Source: an uncultured Bifidobacterium sp. (GTDB lineage: Bacteria; Acidobacteriota; Vicinamibacteria; Vicinamibacterales; CAVVIG01). From it: a stretch of 64,000 nucleotides of DNA. The stretch is taken from the NCBI GenBank assembly GCA_964386715.1, contig CAYLTD010000008.1:57123-121122 (forward strand). Reading direction: 5' to 3'. This document shows, piece after piece, positions 26,618-53,750 of the stretch. Below the pieces are notes generated by a model. The model worked only from the letters and a program-made list of their open reading frames with translations, ran no database searches and had not been told where the DNA came from. Positions within the stretch are counted from its first letter, which is position 1. Each line of letters starts with the position of its first letter. The translations under genes and the position numbers were made by a program.

Positions 26618-28401
26618 TGCCGACCCGCGCGTCGTTCCAGACCAAGCTGTTCCTCGCGGCGCTGTCCACCGCGGTGCTGGCGCTGGCCGTTGCGGGTGTG
26701 CTCTTCACGCTGACCATCCGCGAGCAGGCCAACGCGCAGATCGAATCAACGCTGGGCGCTGAGGCCCGGCTCGTCTCGGACCTGCTCGCGCGCATGCCGG
26801 CGCCTGCCGGCGATGCGATGCGTTACCTCGACACCGAGGCCGATCGGATAGGACAACTCCTCGGCGTGCGCGTCACCCTGATCGGCAACGACGGGCGGGT
26901 GCTGGGCGACTCGGCCGAGGCGGCAGAGCGGCTGCCGCTGCTCGAGAACCATGCGACGCGCCCCGAGGTCGTGCGGGCGCGGGCAGGCGGGCTCGGCGTG
27001 GACAGGCGCAGCAGTTCGACCGTCGGCGTGGAGATGGTGTACGTCGCGGTGCCCTCACCGCACGCGCAGGTGGCCGTCGTCCGACTCGCGCTGCCGCTCA
27101 CCAGTGTCCGCCAGCAGCTGCAGCGCGGGCTCTCCCCCGCAGCCGTCGCACTGGGCCTGGCGCTGCTCGGCGGCGGACTGCTTGCCGCGATGCTCGCGGG
27201 ACGCATGGGACAGCGCGTCCGCGCCATCGCGTGGATCGCCGAGCGCTACCGGCAGGGCGACCTGACGCCACCGCGGCTCGACTACGGAGACGATGAACTG
27301 GGCCTGGTGGCACGGGCCCTGGACGATTCGGTCCACGAACTCGGCAGCCGCCTCGAAGACCTCGAACGGGACCGCGGCCGCATGGCGGCGCTCCTGGCCG
27401 GCATGATTGAGGGAGTCATCGTGGTGGACCAATCCGGACGGCTGCAGCTGGTCAACGCCGCCGCGCAGGACATGCTCCGAATCGACGCCGCACCGATCGG
27501 CCGGCACTACGTCGAGACGATCCGGCACCCGGCCATCACCGAGCTCGTCGCCGCGGCGCTGCGCGGCCGGACGCCGGCCTCGGTCGAGTTCTCCCCGCCA
27601 CGCGATTCGGCACGAACACTCATCGTGCGCGCCGCGCCGGTGGCCGCCGGCTGGCCATCCGGCGTCGTGCTCGTGCTGCACGACATCACGGAACTGAAGA
27701 AAGCGGACAAGGTGCGGCGGGACTTCGTCGCGAACGTCTCGCACGAACTGCGGACGCCGCTGACCGCCATCCGCGGCTACGTGGAGGCGCTGTCGGAGGG
27801 CGATGCCGGCCCGGAGGACAGCGCGCGGTTCCTCGAGATCATCACCCGCCACACCCGTCGGATGGAGCGGCTCGTACAGGACCTGCTGCGGCTGGCGCGG
27901 ATCGAAGCGGGGCAGGAGACCCTGGACCTCGGGCCATGCGACCTGCGGTCGCTCGCGCAGGTCGTCGTCTCCGATCTCGAGTCGGCATTCGACGCGAAGC
28001 AGCAGCGGGTGCGGATCGAGATCGACCCGTCAGCGGCGCTGGTGCAGGCCGACGCCGCCAAGCTGCACGACGTGCTGCGTAACCTGCTCGCCAACGCGAG
28101 TGCCTATTCGCCGGAGGGCACCACGATCCAGGTCGCGAGCCGACCGGCGAACGACCGCGTCGCCGTGGACATCCTCGACGAGGGCCCCGGCATTCCCGAG
28201 GGCGACCGCACACGCGTGTTCGAGCGGTTCTACCGGGTCGACAAGTCGCGCGCGCGCGACCCGGGCGGCACCGGCCTCGGGCTGGCGATCGTCAGGCACC
28301 TCGTGGAACTGCACGGCGGGAAGGTGTCGGTCAGGAACCGCGCGACCGGCGGGGCGCAGTTCACGGTCGAACTGGCACCCGCGTCGTTCGAGGAACGGTA
28401 G
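26617..28401 (+). CDS. phoR: sensor histidine kinase, PhoR-like
   Basis: Two TM segments flanking a periplasmic domain, then HAMP/PAS-like region, H-box [15 protein letters not shown] and HATPase ([11 protein letters not shown]). Confidence 0.75.
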
Positions 28402-28404: not shown

Positions 28405-29397
28405 CTATCGCGCCCCGGCGAGGCTGAGCAGGGTGTAGGTGAGTGCGCCAATCGTGAAGGCGGCGGGAATGGTGAGCACCCACGCCCAGACGATCTGCCC
28501 GGCCACACCCCAGCGCACCGCCGACAGCCGCCGCGTGGCGCCGACGCCCACGATCGACCCGGTGATGGCGTGCGTGGTGCTGACGGGCACGCCCGTCAGC
28601 GTGGCAATCATCAGCGCCGTCGCCGCGCCGGTTTCCGCGGCAAATCCGCCGACGGGCTGGAGCTTGGTGATCTTGGCGCCCATCGTGTGAATGATGCGCC
28701 AGCCGCCGGCCAGAGTCCCGAGGCCGATCGCCGTGTGCGCGAGCAGGACCACCCAGAACGGGATGTCGAAGGTCGGGATGTAGCCGGCCGCGAACAGGAT
28801 GCCGGCGATGATGCCCATCGTCTTCTGGGCGTCGTTGGCACCGTGATTCAGGCTGAAGAAGGCAGCCGACACGAGCTGCAGGCGGCGAAACCACCGGTCC
28901 ACGCGCGACGGGGGCGTCCACCGGAAGATCCACAGGATCGCGGTCATCAGCGCGAGCCCGGCGGTCAGGCCGATGAGCGGCGACAGGAGGATGAAGGTGA
29001 GCGTGAGCGTCCAGCCGCTCGGGATGATCGCCGCGAACCCGGCCTTCGCCACCGCGGCTCCGGCGTAGCCGCCGATGAGCGCGTGCGACGAGCTCGTCGG
29101 GAGCCCGAAGTACCAGGTGATCAGGTCCCACACGATCGCGCCCGTCAGCCCGCCGAACACCACCGCGAAGGTGACGATGTTGATGTCGATCATGCCGGAG
29201 CCCACCGTCTTGGCGACGGCAGTTCCGAACACGAACGCGGCGACGAAGTTGAAGAACGCGGCCCAGATGACCGCCTTGCCCGGCGTCAGGACCCGCGTGG
29301 AGACGACGGTGGCGATGGAGTTCGCCGCGTCGTGAAAGCCGTTGATGTAGTCGAAGACGAGCGCGACCCCGATCAGCGCGACGACGATCCAGAACAT
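28405..29397 (-). CDS. pit: inorganic phosphate transporter, PiT family
   Basis: N-terminal FDYINGFHDAANSIAT and repeated GANDAQK motif. Multi-TM. Confidence 0.9.
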   Translation of the reverse strand: MFWIVVALIGVALVFDYINGFHDAANSIATVVSTRVLTPGKAVIWAAFFNFVAAFVFGTAVAKTVGSGMIDINIVTFAVVFGGLTGAIVWDLITWYFGLPTSSSHALIGGYAGAAVAKAGFAAIIPSGWTLTLTFILLSPLIGLTAGLALMTAILWIFRWTPPSRVDRWFRRLQLVSAAFFSLNHGANDAQKTMGIIAGILFAAGYIPTFDIPFWVVLLAHTAIGLGTLAGGWRIIHTMGAKITKLQPVGGFAAETGAATALMIATLTGVPVSTTHAITGSIVGVGATRRLSAVRWGVAGQIVWAWVLTIPAAFTIGALTYTLLSLAGAR

Positions 29398-29404
29398 CGG
29401 CGGG

Positions 29405-30022
29405 TCAACCGTGCTTGACTACGACGCCTTCGAGGACGTTGGCCACGTCCTCGCAGCGGTCGGTCGCATGCTCCAGCAGGTCGAGCGTCTCCTTCCACTT
29501 CATCACCGTGATCGGGTCGCGCTCGGTCTCGAACAGCCGGCTCACCGCTTCCTGGTGGATGCGGTCGGCGTCGTTCTCGAGGCGATTGATCTCGACGGCG
29601 TGGGTGATGACGCCCTTGTTCTTCTCCATGGCGTCGAGCGCGAGGCGGACCTGCCTGGTGCTGGCCGTGATCGTCTGGGCCAGTTCCCGCACACCGAACC
29701 GCACCGAATCGATCTTGTAGACCTTGATCAGCGTCGCCGACGCGTCGATGGCATCCATCACATCGTCGAGCGACTTGGCCAGCTCGTGGATGTCCTCGCG
29801 ATCGATCGGGGTGACGAAGGTCCGGTTCAGGCGCTGGATGATTTCGTGCGTGAGGAAGTCGCACTTGTGCTCGACCTCCTTGATCTCCTCCGCCTTGTGC
29901 CAGAGGGGCTGGTCGGGCGCGACCATCTCCTCGAGGAGCGCGGCCCCGCGCTGCAGTTCGTCAGCCAGCGCCTGGAAGTCACTGTAGAACTTCTCCTCGC
30001 GTGGAATCAGACGAAATACCAA
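29405..30022 (-). CDS. DUF47 / PhoU-like Pit accessory protein
   Basis: 205 aa, helical, starting FRLIPREEKFYSDF, which is typical of the TIGR00153 family. TTG start with GGGAGGG RBS. Immediately upstream of pit. Confidence 0.85.
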   Translation of the reverse strand: MVFRLIPREEKFYSDFQALADELQRGAALLEEMVAPDQPLWHKAEEIKEVEHKCDFLTHEIIQRLNRTFVTPIDREDIHELAKSLDDVMDAIDASATLIKVYKIDSVRFGVRELAQTITASTRQVRLALDAMEKNKGVITHAVEINRLENDADRIHQEAVSRLFETERDPITVMKWKETLDLLEHATDRCEDVANVLEGVVVKHG

Positions 30023-30082
30023 CGGACCCTCCCTCGACTGTCACTCGTCAACGCAGGAAACCCACGGATTGTAGCAGAACCA

Positions 30083-30099
30083 TTTACACAGCCGTTACA
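30083..30099 (+). promoter_or_regulatory. TTTACA-N5-GTTACA direct repeat, candidate PhoB/PhoP-type box
   Basis: The hexamers start 11 bp apart. The site lies 63 nt upstream of the glgC ATG and 61 nt from the divergent DUF47-pit start. Confidence 0.35.
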
Positions 30100-30161: not shown

Positions 30162-31442
30162 ATGGCCGTGAACAACGAAGTTCTCGCAATCATCCTGGGC
30201 GGCGGGCAGGGCTCGCGCCTTTTCCCCCTCACGCAGCTGCGCTCCAAGCCGGCGGTGCCGATCGCCGGGAACTACCGCCTGATCGACATCCCCGTGAGCA
30301 ACTGCCTGCACGCGGACATCCGGCGGATCTTCGTGCTGACGCAGTTCAACTCCGCGTCGCTCAACCGGCACGTGAGCCAGACCTACCGGATGGACCTGTT
30401 CAGCCCGGGCTTCGTCGAGATCCTGGCCGCCGAGATCACCCCCGAGAACACCAACTGGTTCCAGGGTACGGCCGACGCGGTGCGCAAGGCGGCCCGCCAC
30501 TTCGTCCGGTACGACTCCGACTACTACTTGATCCTGGCGGGCGACCACCTGTACCGGATGGACTACTGCGAGATGGTGGACGCGCACATCGAGCGCAAGG
30601 CCGACATCACCATCGCGGCGCAGCCCTGCACGCCCGAGGACGCCACGCAGATGGGCATCTTCCGCTTCGACCGCCAGGGGCACATCGTCGCCTTCGAGGA
30701 AAAGCCCAATGCCGAGCGGCTGGCCGAGATCGGCCAGAGCATCCCGAAGGGGGCGACCACGGCGGGCGTCTCACCGGACAAGCCCTTCGTGGCCTCGATG
30801 GGCGTGTACGTCTTCTCGCGCGAGGTGCTGCTCGAACTGCTGGCAGCGAGCGAGGCCAAGGACTTCGGCCGCGAGGTCATTCCGTCGGCCCTCGGGAAGT
30901 ATCGCGTCAATTCGTTCCTGTTCCGCGGGTTCTGGGCCGATGTCGGGACGGTGGAGTCGTTCTACGACGCGAACATCATGCTCACCAGGCCCGGGTCGCC
31001 CTTCAAGTTCTACGACCCGCACCGGCCGATCTTCACGCACGCGCGGTTCCTGCCGGGCTCACGGCTGGTGGACGCGCGCATGCACGACGCCATCGTGTCG
31101 GAGGGGTGCTATCTGGCGCAGTGCACCGTGGAGGCGTCGGTCATCGGGATCCGCACCCACGTGCAGGAGGGCGCCACCATTTCCCGGTCGGTGCTCCTCG
31201 GCGCGGACTATTTCGAGTCGGAAGACCGAGCCCCGGCCCGCGGGGATGCCCCGCGCCTGGGCATCGGGCGCAACGTCGTGCTGGACAAGGTGATCGTGGA
31301 CAAGAACGCGCGCATCGGCGACGGTGCGCGGCTCGTCAACGCGCAGGGCGTCACGCATGCCGACGGCGACGGCTACTACATCCGCGACGGCATCATCATC
31401 GTGCCGAAGGACGGGGTCATCAAGCCGGGCACCATCGTGTAA
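30162..31442 (+). CDS. glgC: glucose-1-phosphate adenylyltransferase
   Basis: Start at ATG 30162. LAIILGGGQGSRLFPLTQLRSKPAVPIAGNYRLIDIPVSNC. C-terminal left-handed beta-helix region. Confidence 0.9.
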   Translation: MAVNNEVLAIILGGGQGSRLFPLTQLRSKPAVPIAGNYRLIDIPVSNCLHADIRRIFVLTQFNSASLNRHVSQTYRMDLFSPGFVEILAAEITPENTNWFQGTADAVRKAARHFVRYDSDYYLILAGDHLYRMDYCEMVDAHIERKADITIAAQPCTPEDATQMGIFRFDRQGHIVAFEEKPNAERLAEIGQSIPKGATTAGVSPDKPFVASMGVYVFSREVLLELLAASEAKDFGREVIPSALGKYRVNSFLFRGFWADVGTVESFYDANIMLTRPGSPFKFYDPHRPIFTHARFLPGSRLVDARMHDAIVSEGCYLAQCTVEASVIGIRTHVQEGATISRSVLLGADYFESEDRAPARGDAPRLGIGRNVVLDKVIVDKNARIGDGARLVNAQGVTHADGDGYYIRDGIIIVPKDGVIKPGTIV

Positions 31443-31507
31443 ATCTTCCATAAGCTGCGGGGTCGACGGGCGAACCAATCCTAGGCCCGGGCCCCGCGTC
31501 CGCGCAG

Positions 31508-31546
31508 TTAACGCCCCTGTAACTTTCCCGTCGCAGCCCGATCACA
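31508..31546 (+). promoter_or_regulatory. four 11-bp-phased hexamers, candidate Pho box array
   Basis: TTAACG cccct GTAACT ttccc GTCGCA gcccg ATCACA. The array ends 84 nt upstream of the TBDR ATG (31630). Confidence 0.3.
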
Positions 31547-31629
31547 CCCGCTCTCTACCCTCTCAGTAGCCGGCTCCCCTGCTTCGGGTTCCGGCCTGGG
31601 TCCGGAGGTCTCCGGGCCATGGAGGACCA

Positions 31630-34600
31630 ATGAGACTGTTTCGCTTCATTGTCGCGGTGCTGTGCGCGGCGATGATCCCCGCTGCGGCGTCCGCTCAGCA
31701 AACCGAGGGGCGCATCATCGGCAAGATTGCCGACCAGAGCCAGGGCGCCCTGCCCGGTGTCACGGTCAACATCGAATCGCGCGACACGGGCGCCCTGCGC
31801 TCGATCGTCACCGATGCCGAAGGCCGGTTCACGGTCACCAACCTGTCGCCGGGCCGCTACCGCGTGACGGCGCAGCTCGAGGGTTTCCAGCCCCGGGTTC
31901 GCGACCTCGTGCTCGGCGTGGGCCAGGTGGAGACCGTGACGCTCGAACTCGGCATCGCGGCCATTTCCGAGTCGGTCAACGTGCAGGCCTCGGCCCCGGT
32001 GCTCGACGTCTCCTCGGCGCGCATCGGCGTGAACGTGTCGCCCGAAGAGGTGGAGAACCTCCCGGTCAACGGCCGCAACTTCGCCAACCTGATGACGCTG
32101 GCGACCGGCGCGACCTCGGACGGCAACGGCGGCTGGTCGTCGGTGCGTTTCAACGGCAAGTCGAACCAGCAGAACTATCTCAACTACGACGGCGTGGACG
32201 GCACCTACGTGTGGGACGCGAGCCCGGGCTACCTGAGCGCCACCGGCTCGCAGTTCCGCCTGCAGACCTCGATGGAATCGATCGCCGAGTTCCGCGTGAA
32301 CTCGGGCCTCGCGCCGGCGGAAAGCGGGCTGGGCGCCGGCGGCAACATCACGGTCATCAGCAAGAGCGGCAGCAACCAGCTGCGCGGCTCCGGCTTCTGG
32401 TACGGCCGGAACGACGCCCTCGATGCGGCCAGCAAGTACGACGACCGCAAGCAGCCGCTCGAGCTGAACCAGTTCGGCGGGTCGCTCGGCGGGCCGCTGC
32501 GCTCGAACCGCACGTTCTTCTTCGCCAGCTACGAAGGCCTGCGCCAGACCACCGGCCTGAGCTTCACGGAAGCGGTGCCGAGCGCCGAAGCGCGGCGGCG
32601 GATCCTGGCCGGTGAGCCAATCGGCTCGGGCGCGGGCCAGAGCGCCGCGCGCACGCAGGCGGTGGCCCCGCTGCTGGCCGGCTTCCCGCTCGGCCAGGTG
32701 CCGACGTCTAACCCCCTGGTCGACCTGGCCACACTCGACTCGAACGCGACGCAGCGTGAGAACGCGATCTCGCTCCGCCTGGACCATCGCTTCAGCGCAT
32801 CCCAGTCGGTCTACGCGCGCTACATGTTCAGCGACGGGACCGTCGACACGCCGGACCGGACCGTGACCCCGCGCCGGGTGCTGGCGAAGCAGCGGCCGCA
32901 GAACGCGGTCTTCAACTACCAGTCGATCGTGGGCTCGAACCTGGTGAACGAGATCAAGGTGGGTGTGAACCTGCCGCAGACGAGCGCCACGGCATTCGGC
33001 GCCGTGCCCAACTACCCGGCGCTCGGCGTCTCGCTGGCCGGCGCGTTCACCTCGTCCTCGATTGACGCCCGCGGCAACACGGGAATCGCGCGCAGCGGCC
33101 TGCTGATCCGCGCCACCAGCGCCTCGTCGACCACGGGGTCGGCGTTCGATCCGATGTCCATCGCGCTGAACAGCGCGACCACCTGGACCCGCGGCGTGCA
33201 CACGGTGAAGTTCGGCGGCGAGTACCGGCGCATCCAGTCGGACTTCCAGTTCCTGGGCAGCCAGGAACTGACCTACAACAGCATCAACGACTTCATCGAC
33301 AACCGCCCGAATCAGTACGCCGTCACGCAGGACTCGCCGGTCTTCCGGCCCGAACAGTTCTACGCGATTGGCTTCGTGCAGGATACGTGGCGAACGAGCG
33401 ACAAGCTGACGCTCGAACTGGGCCTGCGCTACGACTACTACTCGGTGGTGCGTGAGGCCCAGGGCCGCGCCAGGCCGTTCTTCGTCGAGGAGAACGAGTT
33501 CAGCGCGGACGCGAACAACTTCTACGACCCGGACTACAACAACTTCTCGCCCCGCCTGTCGGCGGCCTATCAGCTGAACAACAAGACAGTGCTGCGGTCC
33601 GGCTTTGGCCTGTTCTACGGCCCGGGCCAGTTCGAGGATCGGATCCAGCCGATCGAGAACTACATCGAGCGCTCACGCGTGCAGGCGTCCGACGTGTCGG
33701 CCAACGCGCTCGCGTATCCGATTGCGGATGCCACGCTCCGCAACCTGCTGTCGATTCGCGGCTACACGCACAACTACCCGAACGAATACAACATGCAGTA
33801 CGGCGTGAGCGTGCAGCGCGAGCTGCCCGGCGCGGTCAACCTGACCGTGGGCTACACGGGCAGCAAGGGCTACGACATGTTCCTGCGCGGCGTGGGCAAC
33901 ACGCTGGACCCGCTCACCCGGGTGCGGCCGGTGCCAGGCTACGGCCAGATCGACTTCAAGACCGGCGGCTGCGTGGACTTCTCGCTGGCGGGCCGCTACC
34001 CGGTGGCGGGCTGCGGCACGGCCAACTACAACGCCCTGCAGGTGAGCGCCACGCGGCGATTCCAGGCGGGCTTCACCGGCGGCTTCCAGTACCAGTACTC
34101 GCGCAACCGGGGCACGACGCAGGGCTCGAACGAAGCGGCGACCGCCCAGAACACCTTCGACTTCAACAGCGAGAACGGGATCAACCCGCAGGACATCCCG
34201 CACACCTTCAACGGCTCGCTGATCTACCTGCTGCCCGGCGAGGGAGCGTGGAAGGGCGGCTGGCGCGTGGGCACCATCATCAACGCCCGGAGCGGCGTGC
34301 CGGTCAACGTCACCATCAACCGTCCGGACAACATCTCGGTCGGCGGCGTGACGGTGACGAACATCCCCGGCGGCAACAGCCGCGGCACGCAGCGCCCGGA
34401 CCTGGTCCCCGGCGTGAACCCCTACATCGAGAACGGGGGCGTACGCTGGCTGAATCCGGCCGCCTTCGCCACGCCGCAGCCCGGCACCTTCGGCAACCTG
34501 CCGCGCAACTTCCTCCGCGGGCCCGAGTTCTGGCAGGCCGACCTGATGTTCTCGAAGGACTTCCGCTTCGCGAACACGCAGGGCATCCAGTTCCGCGTCG

Positions 34601-34788
34601 AGATCTTCAACCTGCTGAACCGGCTCAACTACGAGAACCCGGCAGCGAACCTGCCGAACGGCACGCCGGGTGTGCCATTCACGGATGCGAACGCCGGCAC
34701 CTTCGGCTACATGCTCGGTCCGCTGAACCGCACGGTCGGTCTGGGCACCGCGCGCCAGACGCAGATTTCGCTTCGCTACACGTTCTAA
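31630..34788 (+). CDS. TonB-dependent receptor with carboxypeptidase-regulatory-like N-terminal domain
   Basis: GGAGGA RBS. Signal peptide followed by GRIIGKIAD...GVTVNI. 1052 aa. C-terminal ISLRYTF. Confidence 0.9.
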   Translation: MRLFRFIVAVLCAAMIPAAASAQQTEGRIIGKIADQSQGALPGVTVNIESRDTGALRSIVTDAEGRFTVTNLSPGRYRVTAQLEGFQPRVRDLVLGVGQVETVTLELGIAAISESVNVQASAPVLDVSSARIGVNVSPEEVENLPVNGRNFANLMTLATGATSDGNGGWSSVRFNGKSNQQNYLNYDGVDGTYVWDASPGYLSATGSQFRLQTSMESIAEFRVNSGLAPAESGLGAGGNITVISKSGSNQLRGSGFWYGRNDALDAASKYDDRKQPLELNQFGGSLGGPLRSNRTFFFASYEGLRQTTGLSFTEAVPSAEARRRILAGEPIGSGAGQSAARTQAVAPLLAGFPLGQVPTSNPLVDLATLDSNATQRENAISLRLDHRFSASQSVYARYMFSDGTVDTPDRTVTPRRVLAKQRPQNAVFNYQSIVGSNLVNEIKVGVNLPQTSATAFGAVPNYPALGVSLAGAFTSSSIDARGNTGIARSGLLIRATSASSTTGSAFDPMSIALNSATTWTRGVHTVKFGGEYRRIQSDFQFLGSQELTYNSINDFIDNRPNQYAVTQDSPVFRPEQFYAIGFVQDTWRTSDKLTLELGLRYDYYSVVREAQGRARPFFVEENEFSADANNFYDPDYNNFSPRLSAAYQLNNKTVLRSGFGLFYGPGQFEDRIQPIENYIERSRVQASDVSANALAYPIADATLRNLLSIRGYTHNYPNEYNMQYGVSVQRELPGAVNLTVGYTGSKGYDMFLRGVGNTLDPLTRVRPVPGYGQIDFKTGGCVDFSLAGRYPVAGCGTANYNALQVSATRRFQAGFTGGFQYQYSRNRGTTQGSNEAATAQNTFDFNSENGINPQDIPHTFNGSLIYLLPGEGAWKGGWRVGTIINARSGVPVNVTINRPDNISVGGVTVTNIPGGNSRGTQRPDLVPGVNPYIENGGVRWLNPAAFATPQPGTFGNLPRNFLRGPEFWQADLMFSKDFRFANTQGIQFRVEIFNLLNRLNYENPAANLPNGTPGVPFTDANAGTFGYMLGPLNRTVGLGTARQTQISLRYTF

Positions 34789-34913: not shown

Positions 34914-35037
34914 TCCGCACCCCGTCCGCCCGCGCTCGCGAGCCACGTCACTCCCTCACAGGGTGCCCGGCCCGCGCCGCCCCGGCCACACGCTGACCGC
35001 CGCAGCGCTTTTTACATCCCGCGTCTATACTCCCCGC

Positions 35038-35976
35038 ATGCTCACGAAGGCTCCCCGACCCACAACGGTACTGGCCACCACGGTCGTCACTGCCCTTGCC
35101 GCTGGCATCCTGGTCCAGGGCGCGGACACCCGGAAGACGCTCATCGCGCACCGAGGTGCCTCGGGATACGCTCCCGAGCACACCATGGCCGCCTACGAGA
35201 TGGCCATCGCGCAGAAGGCCGACTTCGTCGAGCCCGACCTGGCCGTCTCGAAGGACGGCGTGCTGATGTGCCTGCACGACGACACGCTCGACCGGACGAC
35301 GAACGTCGAGGACGTGTTCCCGGCCCGGTTCAGCCCCGACGTGAAGGGGCGCGGCGGCGAGAAGCGGTGGGTGGCGAACGATTTCACGGTCGCCGAGATC
35401 AAGCAGCTCGACGCCGGCAGCTGGTTCGACGCGAAGTTCGCGGGGGCACGAGTGCCGACCTGGGAGGACATGGTCGCCTTCGTGCGGACGCACCCGGGCG
35501 TGGGCGTGTATCCCGAGCTGAAGTCGCCGCCGCTCTACACCGCGCGCGGCGTGGACATGACCAGGATCTTCGTCGCATCGGTGAAGCGGCTCGGGCTGGA
35601 CAAGGCCGAGTCGCTGGCGAAGACGCCGGTGATCATCCAGTCGTTCGACCGGCCGACGATTCAGCGCATGGCCACCGAACTACCCACCGTGCCGCGCGTG
35701 TTCCTGACCTCGGACGAAGCCGACATCACCGACGCGCGCTTGAAGGATCTGGCGACGTTCGCGCAGGGGATCGCCCCCGAGAAGCGACTGGTGGCCACGC
35801 ACCCCGACCTCGTCGCCCGGGCCCACGCGCTCGGGCTGACCGTGACCGTGTGGACCTTCCGCGCCGACGAGAAGACCTCCTACGCCAGCGTGGCCGACGA
35901 GATGTCGCAGTTTCTCTACACCTTCGGCATCGACGCCGCGTTCACGAACAACCCGGACCGGTTCCCGCGACGGTAG
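35038..35976 (+). CDS. glpQ: glycerophosphodiester phosphodiesterase, secreted
   Basis: Start at ATG 35038. Signal peptide. LIAHRGASGYAPEHT and EPDLAVSKDGVLMCLHDDTLDRTTN. Confidence 0.85.
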   Translation: MLTKAPRPTTVLATTVVTALAAGILVQGADTRKTLIAHRGASGYAPEHTMAAYEMAIAQKADFVEPDLAVSKDGVLMCLHDDTLDRTTNVEDVFPARFSPDVKGRGGEKRWVANDFTVAEIKQLDAGSWFDAKFAGARVPTWEDMVAFVRTHPGVGVYPELKSPPLYTARGVDMTRIFVASVKRLGLDKAESLAKTPVIIQSFDRPTIQRMATELPTVPRVFLTSDEADITDARLKDLATFAQGIAPEKRLVATHPDLVARAHALGLTVTVWTFRADEKTSYASVADEMSQFLYTFGIDAAFTNNPDRFPRR

Positions 35977-36245: not shown

Positions 36246-37085
36246 TTATCCCCGGGTTAGTCCCGACAGCCGGCGCGTCGCCAGCCGGGCCAGCAGCGAA
36301 CAGACCAGGACGATCATCACCAGGACCAGCGCCCCGGCCCAGGCCTGCCGATGCCAGTCCTCGTACGGGGAGATGGCGTAGGTGAACACCTGCACCGTCA
36401 GCGACGAGATCGGCTGCGACAGGTTCGTGTTGAAGAACCGGTTGTTGAACGACGTGAACAGCAGCGGCGCGGTCTCGCCCGCAATCCGCGCGAGGGCGAG
36501 CACCACGCCCGTCACGATGCCAGGCGCCGCGGCCGGAAGCACGACGGTGAAGACCGCGCGCGCGCGCGTCGCGCCGAGCGCCAGCGCGCCCTCCCTCATC
36601 GTGCCAGGCACCAGCAGCAGCAGTTCCTCCGTGGTGCGCGCGATGATCGGGATCATCATGATGCCGAGCGCCAGGCCGCCGGCAAAGGCGCTGAACTGCT
36701 TGAACGGCAGCACCGCCACTCCGTAGGCGAACACGCCGACCACGATCGACGGCACGCCGTTCAGGGTGTCGGCGGCGAACCGGATGGCCGACGCGAACCG
36801 CGTCCCCGCGTACTCGGCCATGTACACCCCGCTGAGGATCCCCACCGGCACGGCGAGCAGCGAGCCGAGCCCCGACAGGATCAGCGTGCCCACGATGGCG
36901 TTGGCCATGCCGCCGCCCGGCTCTCCGACCGGCGTGGGCATGTGCGTGAAGAAATCGAGGTTGAGGGCTCGGATCCCCTGCGTGATCACGAAGAACAGGA
37001 TCATCACGAGCGGAATCAGGGCCAGCAGGACCGACGCGGCGCAGAACGCCACGAACAACGACGACACGGCCTGGCGTCTGCGCAT
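36246..37085 (-). CDS. pstA: phosphate ABC transporter permease PstA
   Basis: 279 aa, 6 TM segments, EAA-like loop (GALALGATRARAVFTVVLP). Follows pstC. Confidence 0.9.
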   Translation of the reverse strand: MRRRQAVSSLFVAFCAASVLLALIPLVMILFFVITQGIRALNLDFFTHMPTPVGEPGGGMANAIVGTLILSGLGSLLAVPVGILSGVYMAEYAGTRFASAIRFAADTLNGVPSIVVGVFAYGVAVLPFKQFSAFAGGLALGIMMIPIIARTTEELLLLVPGTMREGALALGATRARAVFTVVLPAAAPGIVTGVVLALARIAGETAPLLFTSFNNRFFNTNLSQPISSLTVQVFTYAISPYEDWHRQAWAGALVLVMIVLVCSLLARLATRRLSGLTRG

Positions 37086-37090: not shown

Positions 37091-38029
37091 CTACACCCCA
37101 GCCGCCGCGGCGCGCGCCACCGGCACAGCCTTCACCCGCCCGCTCCGCCCCATGCTCCAGATCAGGAGCCGCGACAGCGAGTTGACGACCAGCGTGATGA
37201 TGAACAGCACGAGCCCGATTTCGATGAGCGCGTGGAGGTACAGTTCGTCGGCCGCCTCGGTGAACTCGTTCGCCAGCACCGCCGCCATCGTGTACTGCGG
37301 GGCGAACAGCGAGAGCGAGACCTGCGGGTTGTTGCCGATCACCATGGTCACCGCCATGGTCTCGCCCAGCGCGCGGCCGAACCCGAGCATCACCGCGCCG
37401 ACGATGCCGGTGCGCGCGTAGAAAAGGGCCGCGGAGATCGCTTCGAATCGGGTGGCGCCCAGCGCATAGGCCGCCTCCCGCTGCGCGACCGGCACCGACT
37501 TGAGCACCTCACGCGTCACCGACGAGGTGAAGGGCACTACCATCACGGCAAGAATCAGGACGGCCGACAGCATGCCGACACCCAGCGGCGGACCTGAGAA
37601 GAGCGGCAGCTGGCGCAGCGCGTCCGGCAGCGATGCCTGGAAGGTCCGCACCGCCGGCACGAGCACGAAGATGCCCCAGAGCCCGTAGACGATGGACGGG
37701 ATGGCCGCGAGCAGTTCGGTGAGGAACACGAGCGGCTGGCGGAGCGCCGGCGGGCAGAGTTCGGTGATGAAGACGGCGATGCCGATCGCGATCGGCGTGG
37801 CGAGCAGCAGCGCCAGCACCGACGAGTACAGCGTCCCCCAGATGAACGGCAGGGCGCCGAAGTCACCCGCGACCGGGTCCCACGTCGAGGTCCGCCAGAA
37901 GTCGAGCCCGAACCGGGCAATCGACAGCCACGACTGGCGCGCGAGCTCGAACCCGATGGCGCCGACAATCGCGATGAGCAGCAGGCCGAAGACGCCGGTG
38001 CCGAACCTGAAGCCGAAATCCTTGCGCAT
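37091..38029 (-). CDS. pstC: phosphate ABC transporter permease PstC
   Basis: 312 aa. REAAYALGATRFEAI permease signature. Lies between pstS and pstA. Confidence 0.9.
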   Translation of the reverse strand: MRKDFGFRFGTGVFGLLLIAIVGAIGFELARQSWLSIARFGLDFWRTSTWDPVAGDFGALPFIWGTLYSSVLALLLATPIAIGIAVFITELCPPALRQPLVFLTELLAAIPSIVYGLWGIFVLVPAVRTFQASLPDALRQLPLFSGPPLGVGMLSAVLILAVMVVPFTSSVTREVLKSVPVAQREAAYALGATRFEAISAALFYARTGIVGAVMLGFGRALGETMAVTMVIGNNPQVSLSLFAPQYTMAAVLANEFTEAADELYLHALIEIGLVLFIITLVVNSLSRLLIWSMGRSGRVKAVPVARAAAAGV

Positions 38030-38069: not shown

Positions 38070-39161
38070 TCAACCCAGCTTGATGGTCTCGAGCAGGGCG
38101 AGCTCCTGCTTCACGACTTCAGCCGGCAGCGGCGCGTATCCGAGCTGGCTCGCGAACTGCTGCCCGTCGGTGAGCGCCCACTTCAGGAACTCCACCATGG
38201 CCCGTGCCTGCGTCTTGTCCTTCGGATCCTCGAACAGCAGCATCCAGGTGAAGGACGAGATCGGGTATGCGCCGGGGCCGGCGGCGTTCGTGATCGAGAC
38301 GCGGAAGTCGGCCGGCATCTGACTCGCCGCCGCGGCTGCGGCCGCGGTGACCGAATCGGTCGACGCCACCACGAACTCGCCCTGGGCGTTCTGCACGGCG
38401 CCGATCGGGATCTTGTTCTGCAGCGCGTAGACCAGCTCGATGTAGCCAATCGATCCGGGCGTCTGCCGCACGAGGCCGGCCACCCCTTCGTTTCCCTTGC
38501 CGCCGACGCCGGCAGGCCAGTTGACCGACGTCGCCACGCCCACCTTCTCCTTCCACTCGGGCGAGACCTTCGACAGGTAGTCCACCCAGATGTAGGTGGT
38601 GCCGGACCCGTCGGAGCGGTGCACCACGGTGATTTCGCTGGCGGGCAGGGTGACGCCCGGATTGATTCGGGCCAGCGCAGGGTCGTTCCACCGCGTGATC
38701 TTGCCCAGGAAGATGTCGGCGAGCAGCGCACCGGAGAACTTGAGCTCGGAGACGCCTGGCAGGTTGTAGACCGGGACGTCGGCGCCGAGCACGGTCGGGA
38801 AGTGCAGGATCTTCGACGGAGCGGCCTTGAGCTGCTCCTCGGTCATCGGGCCGTCGGTGGCGCCGAAGAACACCGTCTCGTTCGACACCTGGCGGATGCC
38901 GCCGCCCGACCCGATCGACTGGTAGTTGATCCGCACCTCGGGGTGCTGCTTGTGGTACTCGTCGAACCACTTCGAGTAGATCGGGTACGGAAAGGTCGCA
39001 CCTGCGCCGTTGATCTGGAGCGACGCCCCGGCGTTCGCGGCGCCGGAGGGGCCCCCGCCTTCGGGCTGCCCGCCGCCGCAGGCAACCGCGGCAACCATCA
39101 GCACCACCGGCGCCGCACCACGCACGGCACGGGCGAACACACGCGAAGCACGCTGCATCAT
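38070..39161 (-). CDS. pstS: phosphate-binding lipoprotein PstS
   Basis: Start at ATG 39161, 9 nt after GGAGGA. Lipobox-like LMVAAVACGG. GAGATFPYPIY, YQSIGSGGG and SDGSGTT phosphate-binding motifs. Confidence 0.9.
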   Translation of the reverse strand: MMQRASRVFARAVRGAAPVVLMVAAVACGGGQPEGGGPSGAANAGASLQINGAGATFPYPIYSKWFDEYHKQHPEVRINYQSIGSGGGIRQVSNETVFFGATDGPMTEEQLKAAPSKILHFPTVLGADVPVYNLPGVSELKFSGALLADIFLGKITRWNDPALARINPGVTLPASEITVVHRSDGSGTTYIWVDYLSKVSPEWKEKVGVATSVNWPAGVGGKGNEGVAGLVRQTPGSIGYIELVYALQNKIPIGAVQNAQGEFVVASTDSVTAAAAAAASQMPADFRVSITNAAGPGAYPISSFTWMLLFEDPKDKTQARAMVEFLKWALTDGQQFASQLGYAPLPAEVVKQELALLETIKLG

Positions 39162-39251
39162 CGAAACGATTCCTCCGGCCATGCCTGCTGGCAGGTCACT
39201 CCTGCCGCGCACGGACCCAGCTGGAAGTGTGTAACGACGTTAGGCGCAACG

Positions 39252-39290
39252 GGTGTCCGGCATGCGTCCGGCATGTTTCGGGCGTGTAAA
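39252..39290 (-). promoter_or_regulatory. four 11-bp-phased hexamers, candidate Pho box array for pstSCA
   Basis: Sense strand reads TTTACA cgccc GAAACA tgccg GACGCA tgccg GACACC. It contains an 11-bp tandem duplication with 10 of 11 positions identical (+ strand 39254..39275). Ends 91 nt upstream of the pstS ATG. Confidence 0.45.
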
Positions 39291-39298
39291 TTCCTGCG

Positions 39299-40393
39299 TC
39301 ATTGCATGATACCCATCAGGATCAGCACCAGTTCGAGCACCAGGATCAGCACGACGATGAGCTCGAGCAGGTGGCCGCGGGCACTCGCGGACTGCTCCAC
39401 GGCGAAGCGGGAGATGTCGTCCAGGGTCTGGAGTTTTGCCTGCACGTCGGCCTTCCAGGTCTCGAGCCCGAGCCGGGCGGCTATCAGCCGGAACAGCCGC
39501 ACCGCGTAGATATCGCCGATGAACTTGACCGTGTTCTCGGTCCGGTCGGTCAGCTCGTTGACGTCGATGAACAGGGCGTGCACCTGCCGCGCGGCCGCGG
39601 CGTACCGCGAGCCGAACCATCCCGGCGTCCGCCGCGGTTCCTTGAGGCGGCTGTAGATGCGCCCGAGCTCCTCGTCCAGCAACCGGTCGTAGTGCCGGAA
39701 CTCCAGGAGCTGCGAGTTGGCGAACTCGGCGATATCCAGGGCGGCCTGCACGCCGGCTGGCGTGTCATAGACGAACGCCGCATTCCATGTGGGCACGACG
39801 AGGTCGTCGGCGAGGTACGAGATGCGGTGGGCGAGCACGGCCTCCTGCTCCTGCCGGCTGAGCGGCTGCCGCTCGCCTCGCAGCAGCGCGGCGATGTCCC
39901 CGCCGTGCTCCGCGAGCAGCGCGTCGGCCGTGAGTGGTACGTCGAGCGCGTGCACCGCGAACACGACGTAGTCCTCGGACAGCACGCGATCGCCCGGTTG
40001 GCCGAGCGCGGGGCGGAGGCGCTCCGCCACCTGGTGCGCGAGCGTCTCGGCGCGCCGCTCGAGTTCGGCGTTTTCCATCACCTCCGGCGCGGTCGCGAGC
40101 AGCTCGCTCCAGGACCCGTGGAAGGGACGGGACAGCGCCAGCGACAGGACGCCGTAGTCGTAGATCCGCACGCGCGTGTGGAACCCCGCGACCGCCGGCA
40201 GCGCGAGTGCATCGCCATCGAATGCAAGCGGAGGATTGTCGTACTGCACGTAGGGAGGCGTCGGCGGCTTGGGCGAAAGGCGCGAGGCCACGGCCGATGG
40301 CCCGACGAGCGCCGGGACCGCCCCGAGGTCGGCGCTCTCCGCGACGTCGAACAGGTAGAACGCCACGACCTGGCCCGTGCGGATCTGCGACAT
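39299..40393 (-). CDS. hypothetical protein with C-terminal TM helix, possibly RMD1/DUF155-like
   Basis: 364 aa. The C-terminal FIGDIYAVRLFRLIAARLGLETW and a terminal TM segment (LLELIVVLILVLELVLILMG) loosely recall DUF155. The label is weak; the CDS call is good. Confidence 0.7.
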   Translation of the reverse strand: MSQIRTGQVVAFYLFDVAESADLGAVPALVGPSAVASRLSPKPPTPPYVQYDNPPLAFDGDALALPAVAGFHTRVRIYDYGVLSLALSRPFHGSWSELLATAPEVMENAELERRAETLAHQVAERLRPALGQPGDRVLSEDYVVFAVHALDVPLTADALLAEHGGDIAALLRGERQPLSRQEQEAVLAHRISYLADDLVVPTWNAAFVYDTPAGVQAALDIAEFANSQLLEFRHYDRLLDEELGRIYSRLKEPRRTPGWFGSRYAAAARQVHALFIDVNELTDRTENTVKFIGDIYAVRLFRLIAARLGLETWKADVQAKLQTLDDISRFAVEQSASARGHLLELIVVLILVLELVLILMGIMQ

Positions 40394-40519: not shown

Positions 40520-42883
40520 TCAGAACGCGGTACGCAGGCGCACCATCCAGGTGCGGGGCGCACCGTAGTGCGTCCCGTTGAAGATCGAGAGGAAGTTGAG
40601 CAGGTACCGCGTGTCGAACACGTTCAGCAGTCCCGCCTGCAGTTCGAGCCTCCTCGGGCCGCGCCGCACCAGGTCGGCACTCGCCAGCACGTCGAGCAGC
40701 GCCCGCGACCTCGCGCGCCCCGTTGCCACGTTCACCAGCGGCAGGGCCGCGGGATCCTCGAAGGTCGCCGGATCGAACCCCTCGGGCAGCGCGAACGGGA
40801 TGCCGCTGTCCACGCGGCCGGTGGCCGACAGCGAGACGCGCGTGCTCGGGTGCTGCCAGGTCGCGCCGTACTGCATCTGCCAGCGCTGATCGTGATCGGC
40901 GTAGAACCGCTCCCCCGCCTCCGGCACCTCCTCGAGGAACAGGCCCCCGGTGAGCGGCGCCGTCAGGAGCGTCCGCGCCCGCGCGAGGCTCAGGTACCCG
41001 TTGACACCACGGTAGACGGGCACGTCCACCCTGGCCTCGACACCTTCGGCGACCCCCCGGGCCACCGAAATCGGGAACGTCACCGTCGTGTCGAAGAACT
41101 GCGCCACGTCGGCGAGGTTGCGGATGTTCTTGCGGTAGTAGGCGAGGTCCACCTTCGCGCGCGTGGAGAATGCCTGCTGCACGCCGACCTCGAAGGCGTG
41201 CTGACGCTCCGAGGTGACGTCGGCGCCGGCGATGCCGCTGGTCGACAGCGCGCGCGCCTGCGCCGAACTGGACAGCAGCAGGTTCTCGGAGAACGGCGGC
41301 ATGAAAATGCGGCTGTACGACCCGCGGATCACGGTGCCGCTGTCGTGCACGTGATAGGCGACGCCGAGCCGCGGGCTCAGCGCCGACTCCTCCACCAGCA
41401 TGTCGTAGCGGTCCCAGCGCATGCCGACGTTGATGTGCAGGTCCTCGAGGGGCGATACCGAATCCTGCACGAAGAGCCCGAGGTTCTGGCCCACCGCGCG
41501 CCCGGCAAAGAAGAACGGCCGTCCGCCTCGTGCGGGATCGAGCGCCGCCTGCAGCGCCGGGTCCACGTCGCCGTTCGGCGTCATGCCGAACTGCTCACGC
41601 GCCGGGTTCCGGTCGTACTGCACGCCGGCCTTGAGTCGATGTCCCGCGGCCGCGTAGCTCACGGCCGCGTTGACGCCCTGGTGATCGAGCGAGCGATCCT
41701 GCGTCGCGGCCAGCGGCACGGCTGTCGAAGCATCGAGCCGGGCGGTAGCCGCCCGCCGGTACGCCTGCACATCGAGCGTCGTGTGCGCGTCGAGCTGCCG
41801 CAGCCACGTCAGCGTCTGCGAGTTGTCGCGCAGGGCCTGGGTCGTGTCCACGCCGAGCGCCTGCGACGCGGCGCGGTTCGCCACGCGGAAGTCGCTGCCG
41901 TTGGCGCTGACCACGGCCCGCACGAAGTCGTGGTCCGACAGGCGGAATTCCATCTTTGCGGTGAACCGGCGCGCATCGCCGCTGTTGTTGAAGTTGTCGG
42001 CGGTCGGCGGGTCGAGGTAGCGATCGGTGCGGTTCCCGCCGGCGCTCACGAAGTAGCCGGTGTTCGTGCCGACGCGCCCGCCGATGGTGGCTCCGCCATC
42101 AACCGCGCCGAAGCGGCCGAGATTGAACGTGCCGGTGCCGGTCACGCGGCGCGGATCGTCGAGGCCCGACCTCGACGTGATGTCGACCACCGCGCCCAGC
42201 TTGCGGCCGTACTCCGCGGGAATGCCGCCGGTCATCACCGCGGCGGACTTCACGTACCGCGGGTCGAGGGGGTTGGCGTAGGCCTCCGTGTATTCGTCGG
42301 TCATCGGCACGCCGTCGACGATGTACTGGATCTGGCCGTGGGATCCGCGCACGTGGATGCGCCCGTTCTGGCTCGGGATGAAGCCGGGCGCCGACAGCAG
42401 CATGCCCGAGAGCTGCCGGCTCGGCGTGGCGGTCGGCATGCGGTCGATCAGGCTGGCCCCGAGGTCGACGTGCGAGCCGGTCGACGAGGTCTCGAGGATG
42501 GCGTCGGCGGACACCTGCACCGTCTCGGCAACCGCGGCGACGCCCACCTGCAGGTCCACCGCCATGGGCACGGTGGTGTGCACGTCCACCACCTGCTGCG
42601 CCTGGGCGAATCCGGGCAGCGCCGCGGTGAGCACGTAGATGCCGAACGGCACGTTCGAGAGCAGGTACCGGCCGTCCCCGTCGGTGACGGCTTCCTGCCC
42701 GGCCTGCGAGATGCGGTTCAGCAAGGTGATCGAGGCACCGGGTACCGGGAGCCCCTGGGGATCGGTGACGGTACCGGAGACGGTCCCGATGTTCTGCGCC
42801 GCGAGGCGGGTGACGCCGAGCAGCAGGCACCACAGCACGCAGGCAGTCAATCGTGCGCTGACAACAGGCCGGAGGGCGGTCAT
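40520..42883 (-). CDS. TonB-dependent receptor with carboxypeptidase-regulatory-like N-terminal domain
   Basis: Signal peptide followed by GTVSGTVTDPQGLPVPGASITL. Plug and barrel. C-terminal VRLRTAF. Confidence 0.9.
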   Translation of the reverse strand: MTALRPVVSARLTACVLWCLLLGVTRLAAQNIGTVSGTVTDPQGLPVPGASITLLNRISQAGQEAVTDGDGRYLLSNVPFGIYVLTAALPGFAQAQQVVDVHTTVPMAVDLQVGVAAVAETVQVSADAILETSSTGSHVDLGASLIDRMPTATPSRQLSGMLLSAPGFIPSQNGRIHVRGSHGQIQYIVDGVPMTDEYTEAYANPLDPRYVKSAAVMTGGIPAEYGRKLGAVVDITSRSGLDDPRRVTGTGTFNLGRFGAVDGGATIGGRVGTNTGYFVSAGGNRTDRYLDPPTADNFNNSGDARRFTAKMEFRLSDHDFVRAVVSANGSDFRVANRAASQALGVDTTQALRDNSQTLTWLRQLDAHTTLDVQAYRRAATARLDASTAVPLAATQDRSLDHQGVNAAVSYAAAGHRLKAGVQYDRNPAREQFGMTPNGDVDPALQAALDPARGGRPFFFAGRAVGQNLGLFVQDSVSPLEDLHINVGMRWDRYDMLVEESALSPRLGVAYHVHDSGTVIRGSYSRIFMPPFSENLLLSSSAQARALSTSGIAGADVTSERQHAFEVGVQQAFSTRAKVDLAYYRKNIRNLADVAQFFDTTVTFPISVARGVAEGVEARVDVPVYRGVNGYLSLARARTLLTAPLTGGLFLEEVPEAGERFYADHDQRWQMQYGATWQHPSTRVSLSATGRVDSGIPFALPEGFDPATFEDPAALPLVNVATGRARSRALLDVLASADLVRRGPRRLELQAGLLNVFDTRYLLNFLSIFNGTHYGAPRTWMVRLRTAF

Positions 42884-49725: not shown

Positions 49726-49855
49726 GACGTAGCTCCCTCCCGGGACGCGGCCCGACTAGGGGCGCAGAATACCACGCACCTCATCGGCCCGTAACCCAGA
49801 TTTAACAGCTCCGATACCCCGACGAAACCTGCGCCCGCTAGTGTGAGGGTGCCCC

Positions 49856-50545
49856 ATGCAGAAACACCGCGTGCTCATCGTCGAAGACGAACAGGACATC
49901 GCCGGGTTGATCAAGCACACCCTGGAGCGCAGCGGGAGCGCCGAAGCCGAGATCGTCGGCAGCGGTGATGCGGCGTTGAAGGCGGTGGCCTCGCGCCCTC
50001 CCGACCTGATCATCCTCGACCTCAACCTCCCCGTGCTCAGCGGCCTCGAGGTGTGCCGCCTGCTCCGCGCCCGGTCCGATGCACGACACCTGCCGATCAT
50101 CATGCTGACGGCGAAGAGCAGCGAAACCGACCGGGTGACGGGCCTGGAGCTCGGCGCTGACGACTATGTAACCAAGCCGTTCAGCCTGCGGGAGTTGACG
50201 GCACGCGTGCGCGCGGTCCTGCGCCGCGCCGCGTCGCCTGAAGATCGGCCGGCCGCGACCTACGTCGGCACGCACCTCGTCGCCGACTTCGATGCCGTGT
50301 CGGTGATGGTGGACGGCGAGCAGGTGCGGCTCACGCGTCGCGAATTCGAACTGCTGCGCTACCTCGTGCAGAACAAGAACCGGGTCGTGTCGCGGGATCG
50401 GCTGCTCGAACGGGTGTGGGGCTACGAGCGGCTGGTGGAGACGCGGTCGGTGGACGTCCACGTCGGCCGGCTGCGGCAGAAGCTCGGATCCGCGGGCCGG
50501 CAGATCGAGACGGCGGTCGGGCTCGGCTACAGGTTCATCGACTGA
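49856..50545 (+). CDS. OmpR/PhoB-family response regulator with no adjacent kinase
   Basis: Receiver domain (VLIVEDEQDI, DLIILDLNLP) and GLELGADDYVTKPFSLRELTARVRAVLRR. C-terminal winged helix. Confidence 0.9.
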   Translation: MQKHRVLIVEDEQDIAGLIKHTLERSGSAEAEIVGSGDAALKAVASRPPDLIILDLNLPVLSGLEVCRLLRARSDARHLPIIMLTAKSSETDRVTGLELGADDYVTKPFSLRELTARVRAVLRRAASPEDRPAATYVGTHLVADFDAVSVMVDGEQVRLTRREFELLRYLVQNKNRVVSRDRLLERVWGYERLVETRSVDVHVGRLRQKLGSAGRQIETAVGLGYRFID

Positions 50546-50757
50546 GCCGGCTCGAGGCGCCAGCCGCGCTCGACCAGCTGCGACACTTCGCGCTGGAGCC
50601 TCGCGCGCATGCGTTCGACACGGTGCCAGTCGGAGCAGGTCTCGCGCCAGCGGAGGCGGCGGTCCTCTTCCAGGCTGATCTCCCAGCCGTCGGTGCCCGC
50701 CAGCGCGATCGAATAGCGGCGCACGTGGTCCTCTGACACCAGCTGCAGTTCAAGCAT
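50527..50757 (-). CDS. small hypothetical protein (76 aa), paralog of 57554..57769
   Basis: ATG preceded by GAGGAG. Shares GW-x18-DWHR(V/L)ER-x2-ARL with the other small ORF. Its 3' end overlaps the convergent regulator gene by 19 nt. Confidence 0.5.
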   Translation of the reverse strand: MLELQLVSEDHVRRYSIALAGTDGWEISLEEDRRLRWRETCSDWHRVERMRARLQREVSQLVERGWRLEPAQSMNL

Positions 50758-50876
50758 CGTTCTCCTCGCGGGTAGACGAGGCGATTCTCCCGTACAGCGT
50801 GTTACGGTCTTGTAAATTATCGAGCCAGCACGTGAACCCAGGCTCTGCCGTAAGATGAACGCGGAGGAGCGAAACC

Positions 50877-53663: not shown

Positions 53664-53750
53664 AGTCCCGCTCCCGAACGGCCCCCGCAGGCACACGGGT
53701 GTCCGTTACACCGACGTCACGGGGAACCGGTAACGTCCGAACGGAGACCC

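Follow-up and report, generated by a model that had tools for sequence, protein, structure and literature searches.

The pstSCA operon of an uncultured acidobacterium is preceded by a phased direct-repeat array, a candidate phosphate-starvation operator (Pho box), which we analyzed in a 64-kb stretch of contig CAYLTD010000008.1; this whole stretch is called the window below. The host lies near the Vicinamibacterales, as the best relatives of its PstS protein, at 76–78% identity, belong to Acidobacteriota / Vicinamibacterales metagenome-assembled genomes (MAGs). With PstS as the query, no hit exceeded 78% identity among genome contigs or 76% among metagenome contigs, and footprinting was therefore made at the order and phylum level. 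The operon occupies the minus strand and starts with pstS, encoding a phosphate-binding lipoprotein (38070..39161; TIGR00975 PstS, 423.8 bits with a cut-off of 205), followed by pstC (37091..38029; TIGR02138, 291 bits) and pstA (36246..37085; TIGR00974, 296 bits), both of which exceed the cut-offs of their models. The intergenic gap between the stop codon of the upstream gene (39301..39299), which codes for a 364-aa protein, and the pstS ATG (39161) is 137 bp long and reads cgcaggaATTTACAcgccCGAAACAtgccGGACGCAtgccGGACACCcgttgcgccTAACGTcgttaCACACTtcc… on the minus strand. A ribosome-binding site, GGAGGA (39171..39176), is located 9 nt upstream of the ATG.

The array begins only 8 nt downstream of the upstream stop codon. 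It consists of four minus-strand hexamers, TTTACA (39290..39285), GAAACA (39279..39274), GACGCA (39268..39263) and GACACC (39257..39252), with starts exactly 11 bp apart. An earlier sequence-only reading had given these four hexamers with their coordinates and phase, and was right to the base; its distance of 91 nt from the 3' end of the array to the pstS ATG, the length of the intergenic region and an 11-bp tandem duplication with 10 of 11 identical positions (CATGCCGGACG/CATGCCGGACA) were likewise confirmed. Tandem Repeats Finder reports the segment 39255..39275 with a period of 11, 1.9 copies and 100% matches, and the periodicity extends further 5', where ACACGCCCGAA / ACATGCCGGAC / GCATGCCGGAC show 8/11 and then 10/11 identity. 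Written as 7-mers with 4-nt spacers, the complete layout is ATTTACA cgcc CGAAACA tgcc GGACGCA tgcc GGACACC cgtt gcgcc TAACGT, where TAACGT (39237..39242, 8.2 bits), located 9 nt after the fourth unit, is the −10 hexamer predicted from conservation. No canonical σ70 −35/−10 pair was found in the region 38900..39700, which includes the intergenic region, and this absence fits an activator-dependent promoter. A conserved CACACT (39226..39231) follows 5 nt after the predicted −10 and contains the predicted transcription start (~39230); its counterparts, CAGACT or GAGACT, occur at the same offset in four related loci (L001, L002, L081 and L022; relatives are referred to by such locus numbers) and are absent in more distant members of the clade. 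A structured 5' leader was also considered and dropped, as the minimum-free-energy fold contains a hairpin, GGCAGGagtgaCCTGCC, yet the leader folds no better than shuffled sequences (z = −0.37).

Conservation of the array among Acidobacteriota

We collected 147 acidobacterial pstS upstream regions (144 non-redundant), leaving out the window sequence and picking the start codons of the relatives by a simple rule. The motif GTAACA is present in 98 of the 147 regions, compared to 32 of 1,600 random background chunks of the same loci, and its copies are mostly located 60–80 nt upstream of the start codon. Pairs of GTAAC are spaced by 11 bp in 65 cases, the second most common spacing being 22 bp (6 pairs). 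Unsupervised expectation maximization on the 144 regions converged on tTGTAACA-nnnc-yGTAACA with an 11-bp period, in which conservation is highest at T3 and A5 of each 7-mer. The resulting phylum consensus, derived from a matrix dominated by Terriglobia, can be written as yTGTAACA-N4-yGTAACA, and a −10-like hexamer follows 9 nt past the proximal unit, with A2 conserved in 95, A4 in 83 and T6 in 86 of 110 cases.

Among the closer relatives, the pst promoters of L081, L001, L002, L003, L007, L083, L009, L085 and L022 share four units, a 9-nt spacer and a TAnnnT hexamer. For example, L081 has ATTTACA cgga CGTAACA cacc CGAAGCA cacc CGACACA cacg accga TAGCCT, L001 has ATTTACA cgga TGTAACA cgtc GGAAGCA cagc CGACACA cacg gccga TAGCGT, and L002 has TTTAACA cact CGTAACA cgcc CGAAGCA cgcg CGATACA cacg gtcac TAGCGT. 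The array of L003 is ATTAACA taca TGAAACA tccc TGACATC tcca CGACACT ccgg gtgcg TACAGT, and that of L022, which has the same gene order as the window, is ATTTACA caca AGTAACA cacc AGAAGCA cgcc GGACACA cacg gtcga TAGCGT, with 132 nt from unit 1 to the ATG compared to 130 nt in the window. In a gap-free alignment of nine sequences, invariant columns are restricted to the units (A-TT-AC, AAC, G, AC) and the hexamer T-A-n-n-n-T, of which the T, A and final T are invariant, whereas the flanks have diverged. In total, the four-unit layout is common to 22 non-redundant promoters of relatives, 21 of which are oriented like pstS and precede the first gene of an operon that includes pst genes. The exception, L027, has a poorly matching array on the opposite strand with no open reading frame (ORF) downstream.

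Each unit has its own sequence preference among 10 relatives. Unit 1 of the window (ATTTACA, 39285..39291) reaches 11.5 bits with a matrix built from relatives only, follows the preference wTTwACA, with T2, T3, A5 and C6 invariant, and is found as an identical 7-mer in L081, L001, L085 and L022. Unit 2 (CGAAACA, 39274..39280) scores 10.6 bits and corresponds to nG(T/A)AACA in the relatives. Unit 3 (GGACGCA, 39263..39269), which lies within the perfect 11-bp tandem repeat and is a predicted weaker site, scores 4.2 bits and corresponds to cGA(A/C)(G/A)C(A/C), e.g., GGAAGCA in L001. The promoter-proximal unit 4 (GGACACC, 39252..39258), positioned in the −35 region, scores 5.1 bits and corresponds to sGA(C/A)AC(A/C), appearing as GGACACA in L022 and as CGACACA in L081 and L001. 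Every base of the four window 7-mers recurs at the same unit and position in four or more of the 10 relatives, so that the apparently degenerate GA units represent the norm of this clade rather than decay. Thus, position, phase and unit-specific sequence of the hexamers are all kept in orthologous pstS promoters. The description of all four hexamers as TTnACA-like, in contrast, holds for unit 1 only, since units 2–4 follow the clade-specific pattern nG(A/T)nAC. These three units score poorly with the phylum matrix, and their support comes from the clade comparison.

Two further observations concern other lineages. Loci labeled Elusimicrobia (L099, L057, L020, L018, L036 and L028) possess phased GTCAC-type repeats upstream of pstS, e.g., cgTCACgcgttcgTCACAttg, which are nearer to the E. 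coli core than the acidobacterial TGTAACA. In six Terriglobia-type loci (L019, L025, L107, L116, L101 and L044), an additional promoter with four units is located about 2.1–2.3 kb upstream of pstS, apart from the boxes close to this gene. It has the sequence TGTAACA caga ATTAACA ttat TGTTACA aaca GGTTACT, a 9-nt spacer and TAGCTT, and precedes a gene for a secreted protein of ~500–620 aa (MRLF…), so that the four-unit design also occurs outside the clade of the window.

Specificity of the motif and further boxes in the window

A loose rule, requiring four hexamers with an 11-bp period and at least 12 of 20 matches to TTNACA (at least two in each hexamer, one hexamer being perfect), is satisfied at four positions on both strands of the window, compared to 1.07 ± 1.3 in first-order Markov controls. 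These positions represent two places, namely the pstS array and three overlapping registers (49769/49780/49791) in the promoter of a gene for a PhoB-like regulator. When the demand for a perfect hexamer is removed, ~0.009 arrays are predicted by chance on the sense strand of the 137-nt intergenic region. With the phylum two-unit matrix, which derives from other genomes only, units 1–2 of the window (ATTTACAcgccCGAAACA, 39291..39274) rank fifth of ~128,000 window positions (13.1 bits).

A more specific 55-nt matrix covering the four units, the spacer and the −10 hexamer was built from the 22 promoters of relatives, with the window excluded. Across the 128,000 window positions it picks out three sites, at 49790 on the plus strand (41.6 bits), 39291 on the minus strand (39.2 bits; the pstS array) and 31507 on the plus strand (36.1 bits), the next independent site having 8.6 bits and the window background a mean of −59 with a standard deviation of 13. 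All four units and the −10 hexamer contribute positively to the score of the pstS array. Although TAnnnT has a frequency of only 0.00093 per position in this window of 69% GC, each of the three arrays has it exactly 9 nt past unit 4, compared to a single instance, inside a unit, at the other offsets tested.

The top hit (49790..49844, plus strand) consists of CGTAACC/TTTAACA/CGATACC/CGAAACC, 9 nt and TAGTGT. A distance of 11 nt separates it from the ATG of a gene for an OmpR-family, PhoB/RegX3-like response regulator (49856..50545, plus strand), hereafter RR2. In L081, upstream of an RR2 ortholog with 85% identity, we found CGTAACC/TTTAACA/CGACACC/CGAAATC, 9 nt and TACCGT, i.e., the weaker units have been kept while the flanks have diverged. 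The RR2 promoter (49839..49858) has no Shine–Dalgarno sequence and TAGTGT ends just 11 nt before the ATG, so that the RR2 mRNA, if the predicted −10 is used, would have little or no leader. The layout is the same for the L081 ortholog (~2162..2180, minus strand), with TACCGT and 12 nt to the ATG.

The third array (31507..31561, plus strand), GTTAACG/TGTAACT/CGTCGCA/GATCACA with 9 nt and TACCCT, is located upstream of a gene for a 1052-aa TonB-dependent-receptor-like protein (31630..34788), which is followed by glpQ for a glycerophosphodiester phosphodiesterase (34963..35976, plus strand; NF008354, 161.8 bits, below the cut-off of 254). The motif is therefore present upstream of glpQ too, ahead of the TonB-receptor–glpQ operon, at one of the genes where the sequence-only reading had proposed to look for it.

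Two-unit boxes were identified at other genes. A nearly palindromic one at 30082..30099 scores 12.6 bits on the plus strand and 11.9 bits on the minus strand, where it reads TGTAACGgctgTGTAAAT, 8 nt, TACAAT; it lies between the divergent glgC gene (30162..31442, plus strand) and an operon encoding a DUF47 protein (TIGR00153) and a Pit phosphate transporter (30022..28405, minus strand). The best two-unit box, ATTTACAagacCGTAACA followed by 10 nt and GAGAAT (50800..50817, minus strand, 18.9 bits), precedes an ORF of 76 aa (50527..50757, minus strand), which is convergent with RR2 and adjoins ppx and sixA. This ORF has no family match and may encode a novel small phosphate-starvation protein. Nothing convincing was found upstream of three further genes, namely the 364-aa gene, a second TonB receptor gene (40520..42883) and the gene of another response regulator, RR1 (see below). 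Within the 64-kb window, the motif thus precedes pstS, the TonB-receptor–glpQ operon, the gene of a PhoB-like regulator, the Pit/DUF47 operon (or glgC) and a small ORF, a set of genes typical of a Pho regulon.

The segment 28405..54770 forms a phosphate-related neighborhood including Pit and DUF47, glgC, the TonB receptor and glpQ, pstSCA, RR2, sixA (51324..51830), ppx (51948..53663) and a CorA/ZntB-like transporter (53751..54770), the latter preceded by a weak box at 53704..53721. The pstSCA genes are not trailed by pstB or phoU, and the end of pstA is convergent with glpQ. A PstB-type Walker A motif (GPSG[CS]GKS) was not found after pstA in the window, L081, L001, L002, L003, L009 or L022, compared to its presence in 91 of 107 loci longer than 6.5 kb, and the PstB ATPase and PhoU of this clade appear to be encoded elsewhere than in pstSCA. 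The 364-aa protein encoded directly upstream of pstS (39299..40393, minus strand) has no Pfam or NCBIfam match and ends in a hydrophobic C-terminal helix (…LIVVLILVLELVLILMGIMQ); its sole homolog (69% identity) is encoded in L022 (1554..2645), likewise immediately upstream of pstS. In the closest relatives, the promoter of the pst operon sits upstream of a porin-like gene that precedes pstS. An equivalence of the 364-aa gene with this porin was rejected, as no porin homolog is encoded in the window and L022 has the only match to the 364-aa protein.

Candidate regulators and the proposed operator

The first candidate regulator, RR1 (25922..26617, plus strand), matches the PhoB model TIGR02154 with 234 bits (cut-off 296) and its gene is translationally coupled to that of a PhoR/PnpS-like histidine kinase (26617..28401, plus strand) with a HAMP-PAS-HisKA-HATPase domain order, which scores 340.5 bits with PnpS (cut-off 400) and 301.6 bits with PhoR TIGR02966 (cut-off 334). 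The upstream region of RR1 has no box (best score −5.2 bits). RR2, the candidate binder with a box of its own, reaches 227 bits with TIGR02154 (cut-off 296) and 220.6 bits with NF053854 (cut-off 270); no kinase gene is adjacent, its neighbors being sixA and ppx. The PhoB/PhoR-like pair reported by the sequence-only reading is indeed encoded in the window as RR1 and its kinase. However, there are two PhoB/RegX3-like regulators, and the one it had named, RR1, lacks a box. For both proteins PhoB is the best NCBIfam model and RegX3 is the best solved relative. The RR2 ortholog of L081 adjoins the pst operon, from which it is divergent, and in L003 a weaker RR2-like match (40–65% identity) is located upstream of the pst promoter. 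In identity of the DNA-binding domain to the pst-linked regulators of other Acidobacteria, RR1 and RR2 are about equal when an E. coli PhoB sequence is used as the ruler. The recognition helix of RR1 is identical to that of the pst-linked regulator in L041, whereas both the helix and the wing of RR2 differ (RSVDVHVGRLRQK).

Taken together, sequence comparison establishes a motif, its phase and conservation, a fixed distance to a conserved −10-like hexamer and recurrence before phosphate genes, and on these grounds the array is very probably the Pho box and the promoter of the pstSCA operon. We infer the binding protein, the graded affinity, the cooperativity, activation rather than repression and the start site as follows. 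The sense strand 39291..39252 would present four direct-repeat half-sites, one per helical turn, to which two dimers of a phosphorylated regulator of the PhoB/RegX3 type, either RR2 or RR1, would bind in a head-to-tail arrangement. The distal pair (ATTTACA, CGAAACA) would be the stronger site, and the weaker proximal pair (GGACGCA, GGACACC), probably filled cooperatively, would stand in for the missing −35 element. Between the end of the proximal pair and the predicted −10 TAACGT (39242..39237) there are 9 nt, and a regulator bound to this pair would recruit RNA polymerase in the manner of E. coli PhoB. The transcript would begin at ~39230, with a leader of ~70 nt.

Several observations weigh against this interpretation. 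RR1 and RR2 both fall below the NCBIfam PhoB equivalog cut-offs. The phylum two-unit matrix gives only 0.8 bits to the register of units 2–3 and −10.3 bits to that of units 3–4, and T3 of the 7-mer, the most conserved position in the phylum, is replaced by A in units 2–4. The seeds of the 55-nt matrix were chosen by eye among two-unit hits. The perfect 11-bp tandem repeat that holds units 3–4 could, taken alone, be due to recent replication slippage. The conserved CACACT/CAGACT element, which resembles the Terriglobia −10 form cAnAcT, could be the real or an alternative −10, or else a part of the start region. Finally, no terminator was identified on the minus strand between the 364-aa gene and pstS, so read-through from this gene may also contribute to pstS transcription.

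The most serious rival takes up the tandem repeat and holds that only units 1–2 are functional, units 3–4 being a functionless by-product of the 11-bp duplication, with the promoter elsewhere. It would account for the poor phylum scores of units 3–4 and for their position within 1.9 perfect copies of a repeat, and two-unit boxes are indeed the most common form in the phylum and occur in the window. However, the conservation in the 10 relatives is unit-specific, with G2 kept in 10/10 and 9/10 and A3 in 9/10 and 8/10 of them in units 3 and 4, respectively. The four-unit design also recurs at two unrelated promoters of the window and in L081, and a −10-like hexamer is located 9 nt after unit 4, with none after unit 2 or unit 3. 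A by-product of duplication is thus quite unlikely.

Alternatively, the array might be the operator of another OmpR-family or direct-repeat regulator that does not respond to phosphate. OmpR-family regulators generally bind direct repeats one helical turn apart, and neither regulator of the window attains the PhoB equivalog cut-off. This option is highly improbable, as the enrichment of the motif is specific to pstS upstream regions across the phylum, the motif precedes pstS, glpQ, Pit and the PhoB-like gene beside ppx in the window, and both regulators point to PhoB and RegX3 as their best model and solved relative. It is barely credible that the array is a periodicity arisen by chance in a GC-rich intergenic sequence, or belongs to an RNA or terminator element of the upstream gene: the loose rule without a perfect hexamer does yield 11 window matches compared to ~6.6 in Markov controls and the array does start 8 nt after the upstream stop codon, but the conservation in relatives, the specificity of the 55-nt matrix, the lack of a terminator-like site on the minus strand and a leader fold no better than shuffled (z = −0.37) all speak against it.

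If the array is the Pho box of pstSCA, its two-part design may be read in more than one way. Among the 10 relatives, the distal pair follows wTTwACA/nGwAACA and the proximal pair follows cGAmrCm/sGAmACm, and we consider it unlikely that this difference reflects two paralogous PhoB-like regulators acting on one promoter rather than a strong and a weak site for one protein. In such an arrangement, phosphorylated RR1 might bind the distal pair and induce RR2, which would then fill the GA-type proximal pair, forming a feed-forward cascade with a sharp threshold response. This cascade could have co-evolved with the loss of pstB/phoU linkage in the clade.

Relation to known Pho boxes

In known Pho boxes of this class, one 22-bp site is formed by two 11-bp direct repeats and serves one regulator dimer (PMC3978041, PMC11870197). 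The 11-bp period is found in both the Bacillus and E. coli systems, with four units being the norm in Bacillus (PMC11870197), and the published rule is that the boxes replace the −35 element ~10 bp upstream of a −10 hexamer TAN3T/A (PMC1906773). The window array shares with these sites an 11-bp repeat in even number, a related core, the −35-replacing position, conservation at pst and recurrence in a regulon.

Compared to E. coli PhoB boxes, the array has the same 11-bp direct repeats in the −35 position, and the phylum motif yTGTAACA overlaps with CTGTCAT. The E. coli phoA promoter has CTGTCATaaagTTGTCAC followed by 10 nt and TATAGT just upstream of phoA, as checked in 5,234 genomes; in the TGTnAC register its spacing to the −10 hexamer is the same 9 nt as in the window array. 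As in the window array, there are four units, in two boxes, at the E. coli pstS promoter. On the other hand, the array does not follow the strict E. coli Pho box (CTGTCAT with an A/T-rich 4-bp spacer): its cores are TTTACA and GAnAC, its spacers are GC-rich (cgcc, tgcc, tgcc), units 2–4 of the clade have nGAnAC rather than TGTCA with conserved differences between units, and pstB and phoU are not linked to pstSCA.

The hexamer/spacer layout and the four units are also those of the B. subtilis PhoP boxes, and the TTTACA of unit 1 fits their consensus perfectly. At the five specified positions of TT(A/T/C)ACA, however, the four units have 5, 3, 2 and 2 matches, so that only unit 1 conforms to the strict Bacillus form. 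Units 2–4 have G for T at position 2 of the 7-mer both in the window and in relatives, the phylum consensus TGTAACA has G at the position of the first T of the hexamer, and the host is a Gram-negative acidobacterium. The sequence-only reading had classified the layout as Bacillus-type rather than E. coli-type. We found no meaningful contrast here, since TGTAACA lies between both cores, the period is shared and the spacing to the −10 hexamer equals that of phoA.

The TTTAACA and GTTAACG units of the window resemble the core of cyanobacterial SphR boxes, which were likewise defined by phylogenetic footprinting (PMC1906773); there, however, the boxes have at least three units, compared to four here, and the flanking bases differ. 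RegX3 of Mycobacterium, considered here together with Streptomyces PhoP, is the closest solved relative of RR1 and RR2; the core sequence of the operators of these two regulators appears to differ from that of the window array. The PHO boxes of Streptomyces consist of 11-nt direct-repeat units with a GTTCACC core, present in variable numbers and bound with graded affinity.

As a regulatory site, the array is of an ordinary kind and is what a specialist would expect before pstS. The assertion that the Pho box of this lineage had not been defined was not contradicted, as our literature search, of incomplete coverage, returned no acidobacterial description. Acidobacteriota are among the most abundant soil bacteria and have repeatedly been implicated in phosphorus cycling. 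The analysis supplies a phylum-wide motif, yTGTAACA-N4-yGTAACA with a −10 hexamer 9 nt later, a Vicinamibacterales-type model of a four-unit promoter, and a first local regulon predicted to include pstSCA, the TonB-receptor–glpQ operon, the gene of a PhoB-like regulator and possibly Pit/DUF47 or glgC. With such models, Pho regulons of these bacteria would be predictable straight from MAGs, and phosphate-starved transcripts would become recognizable in soil metatranscriptomes.

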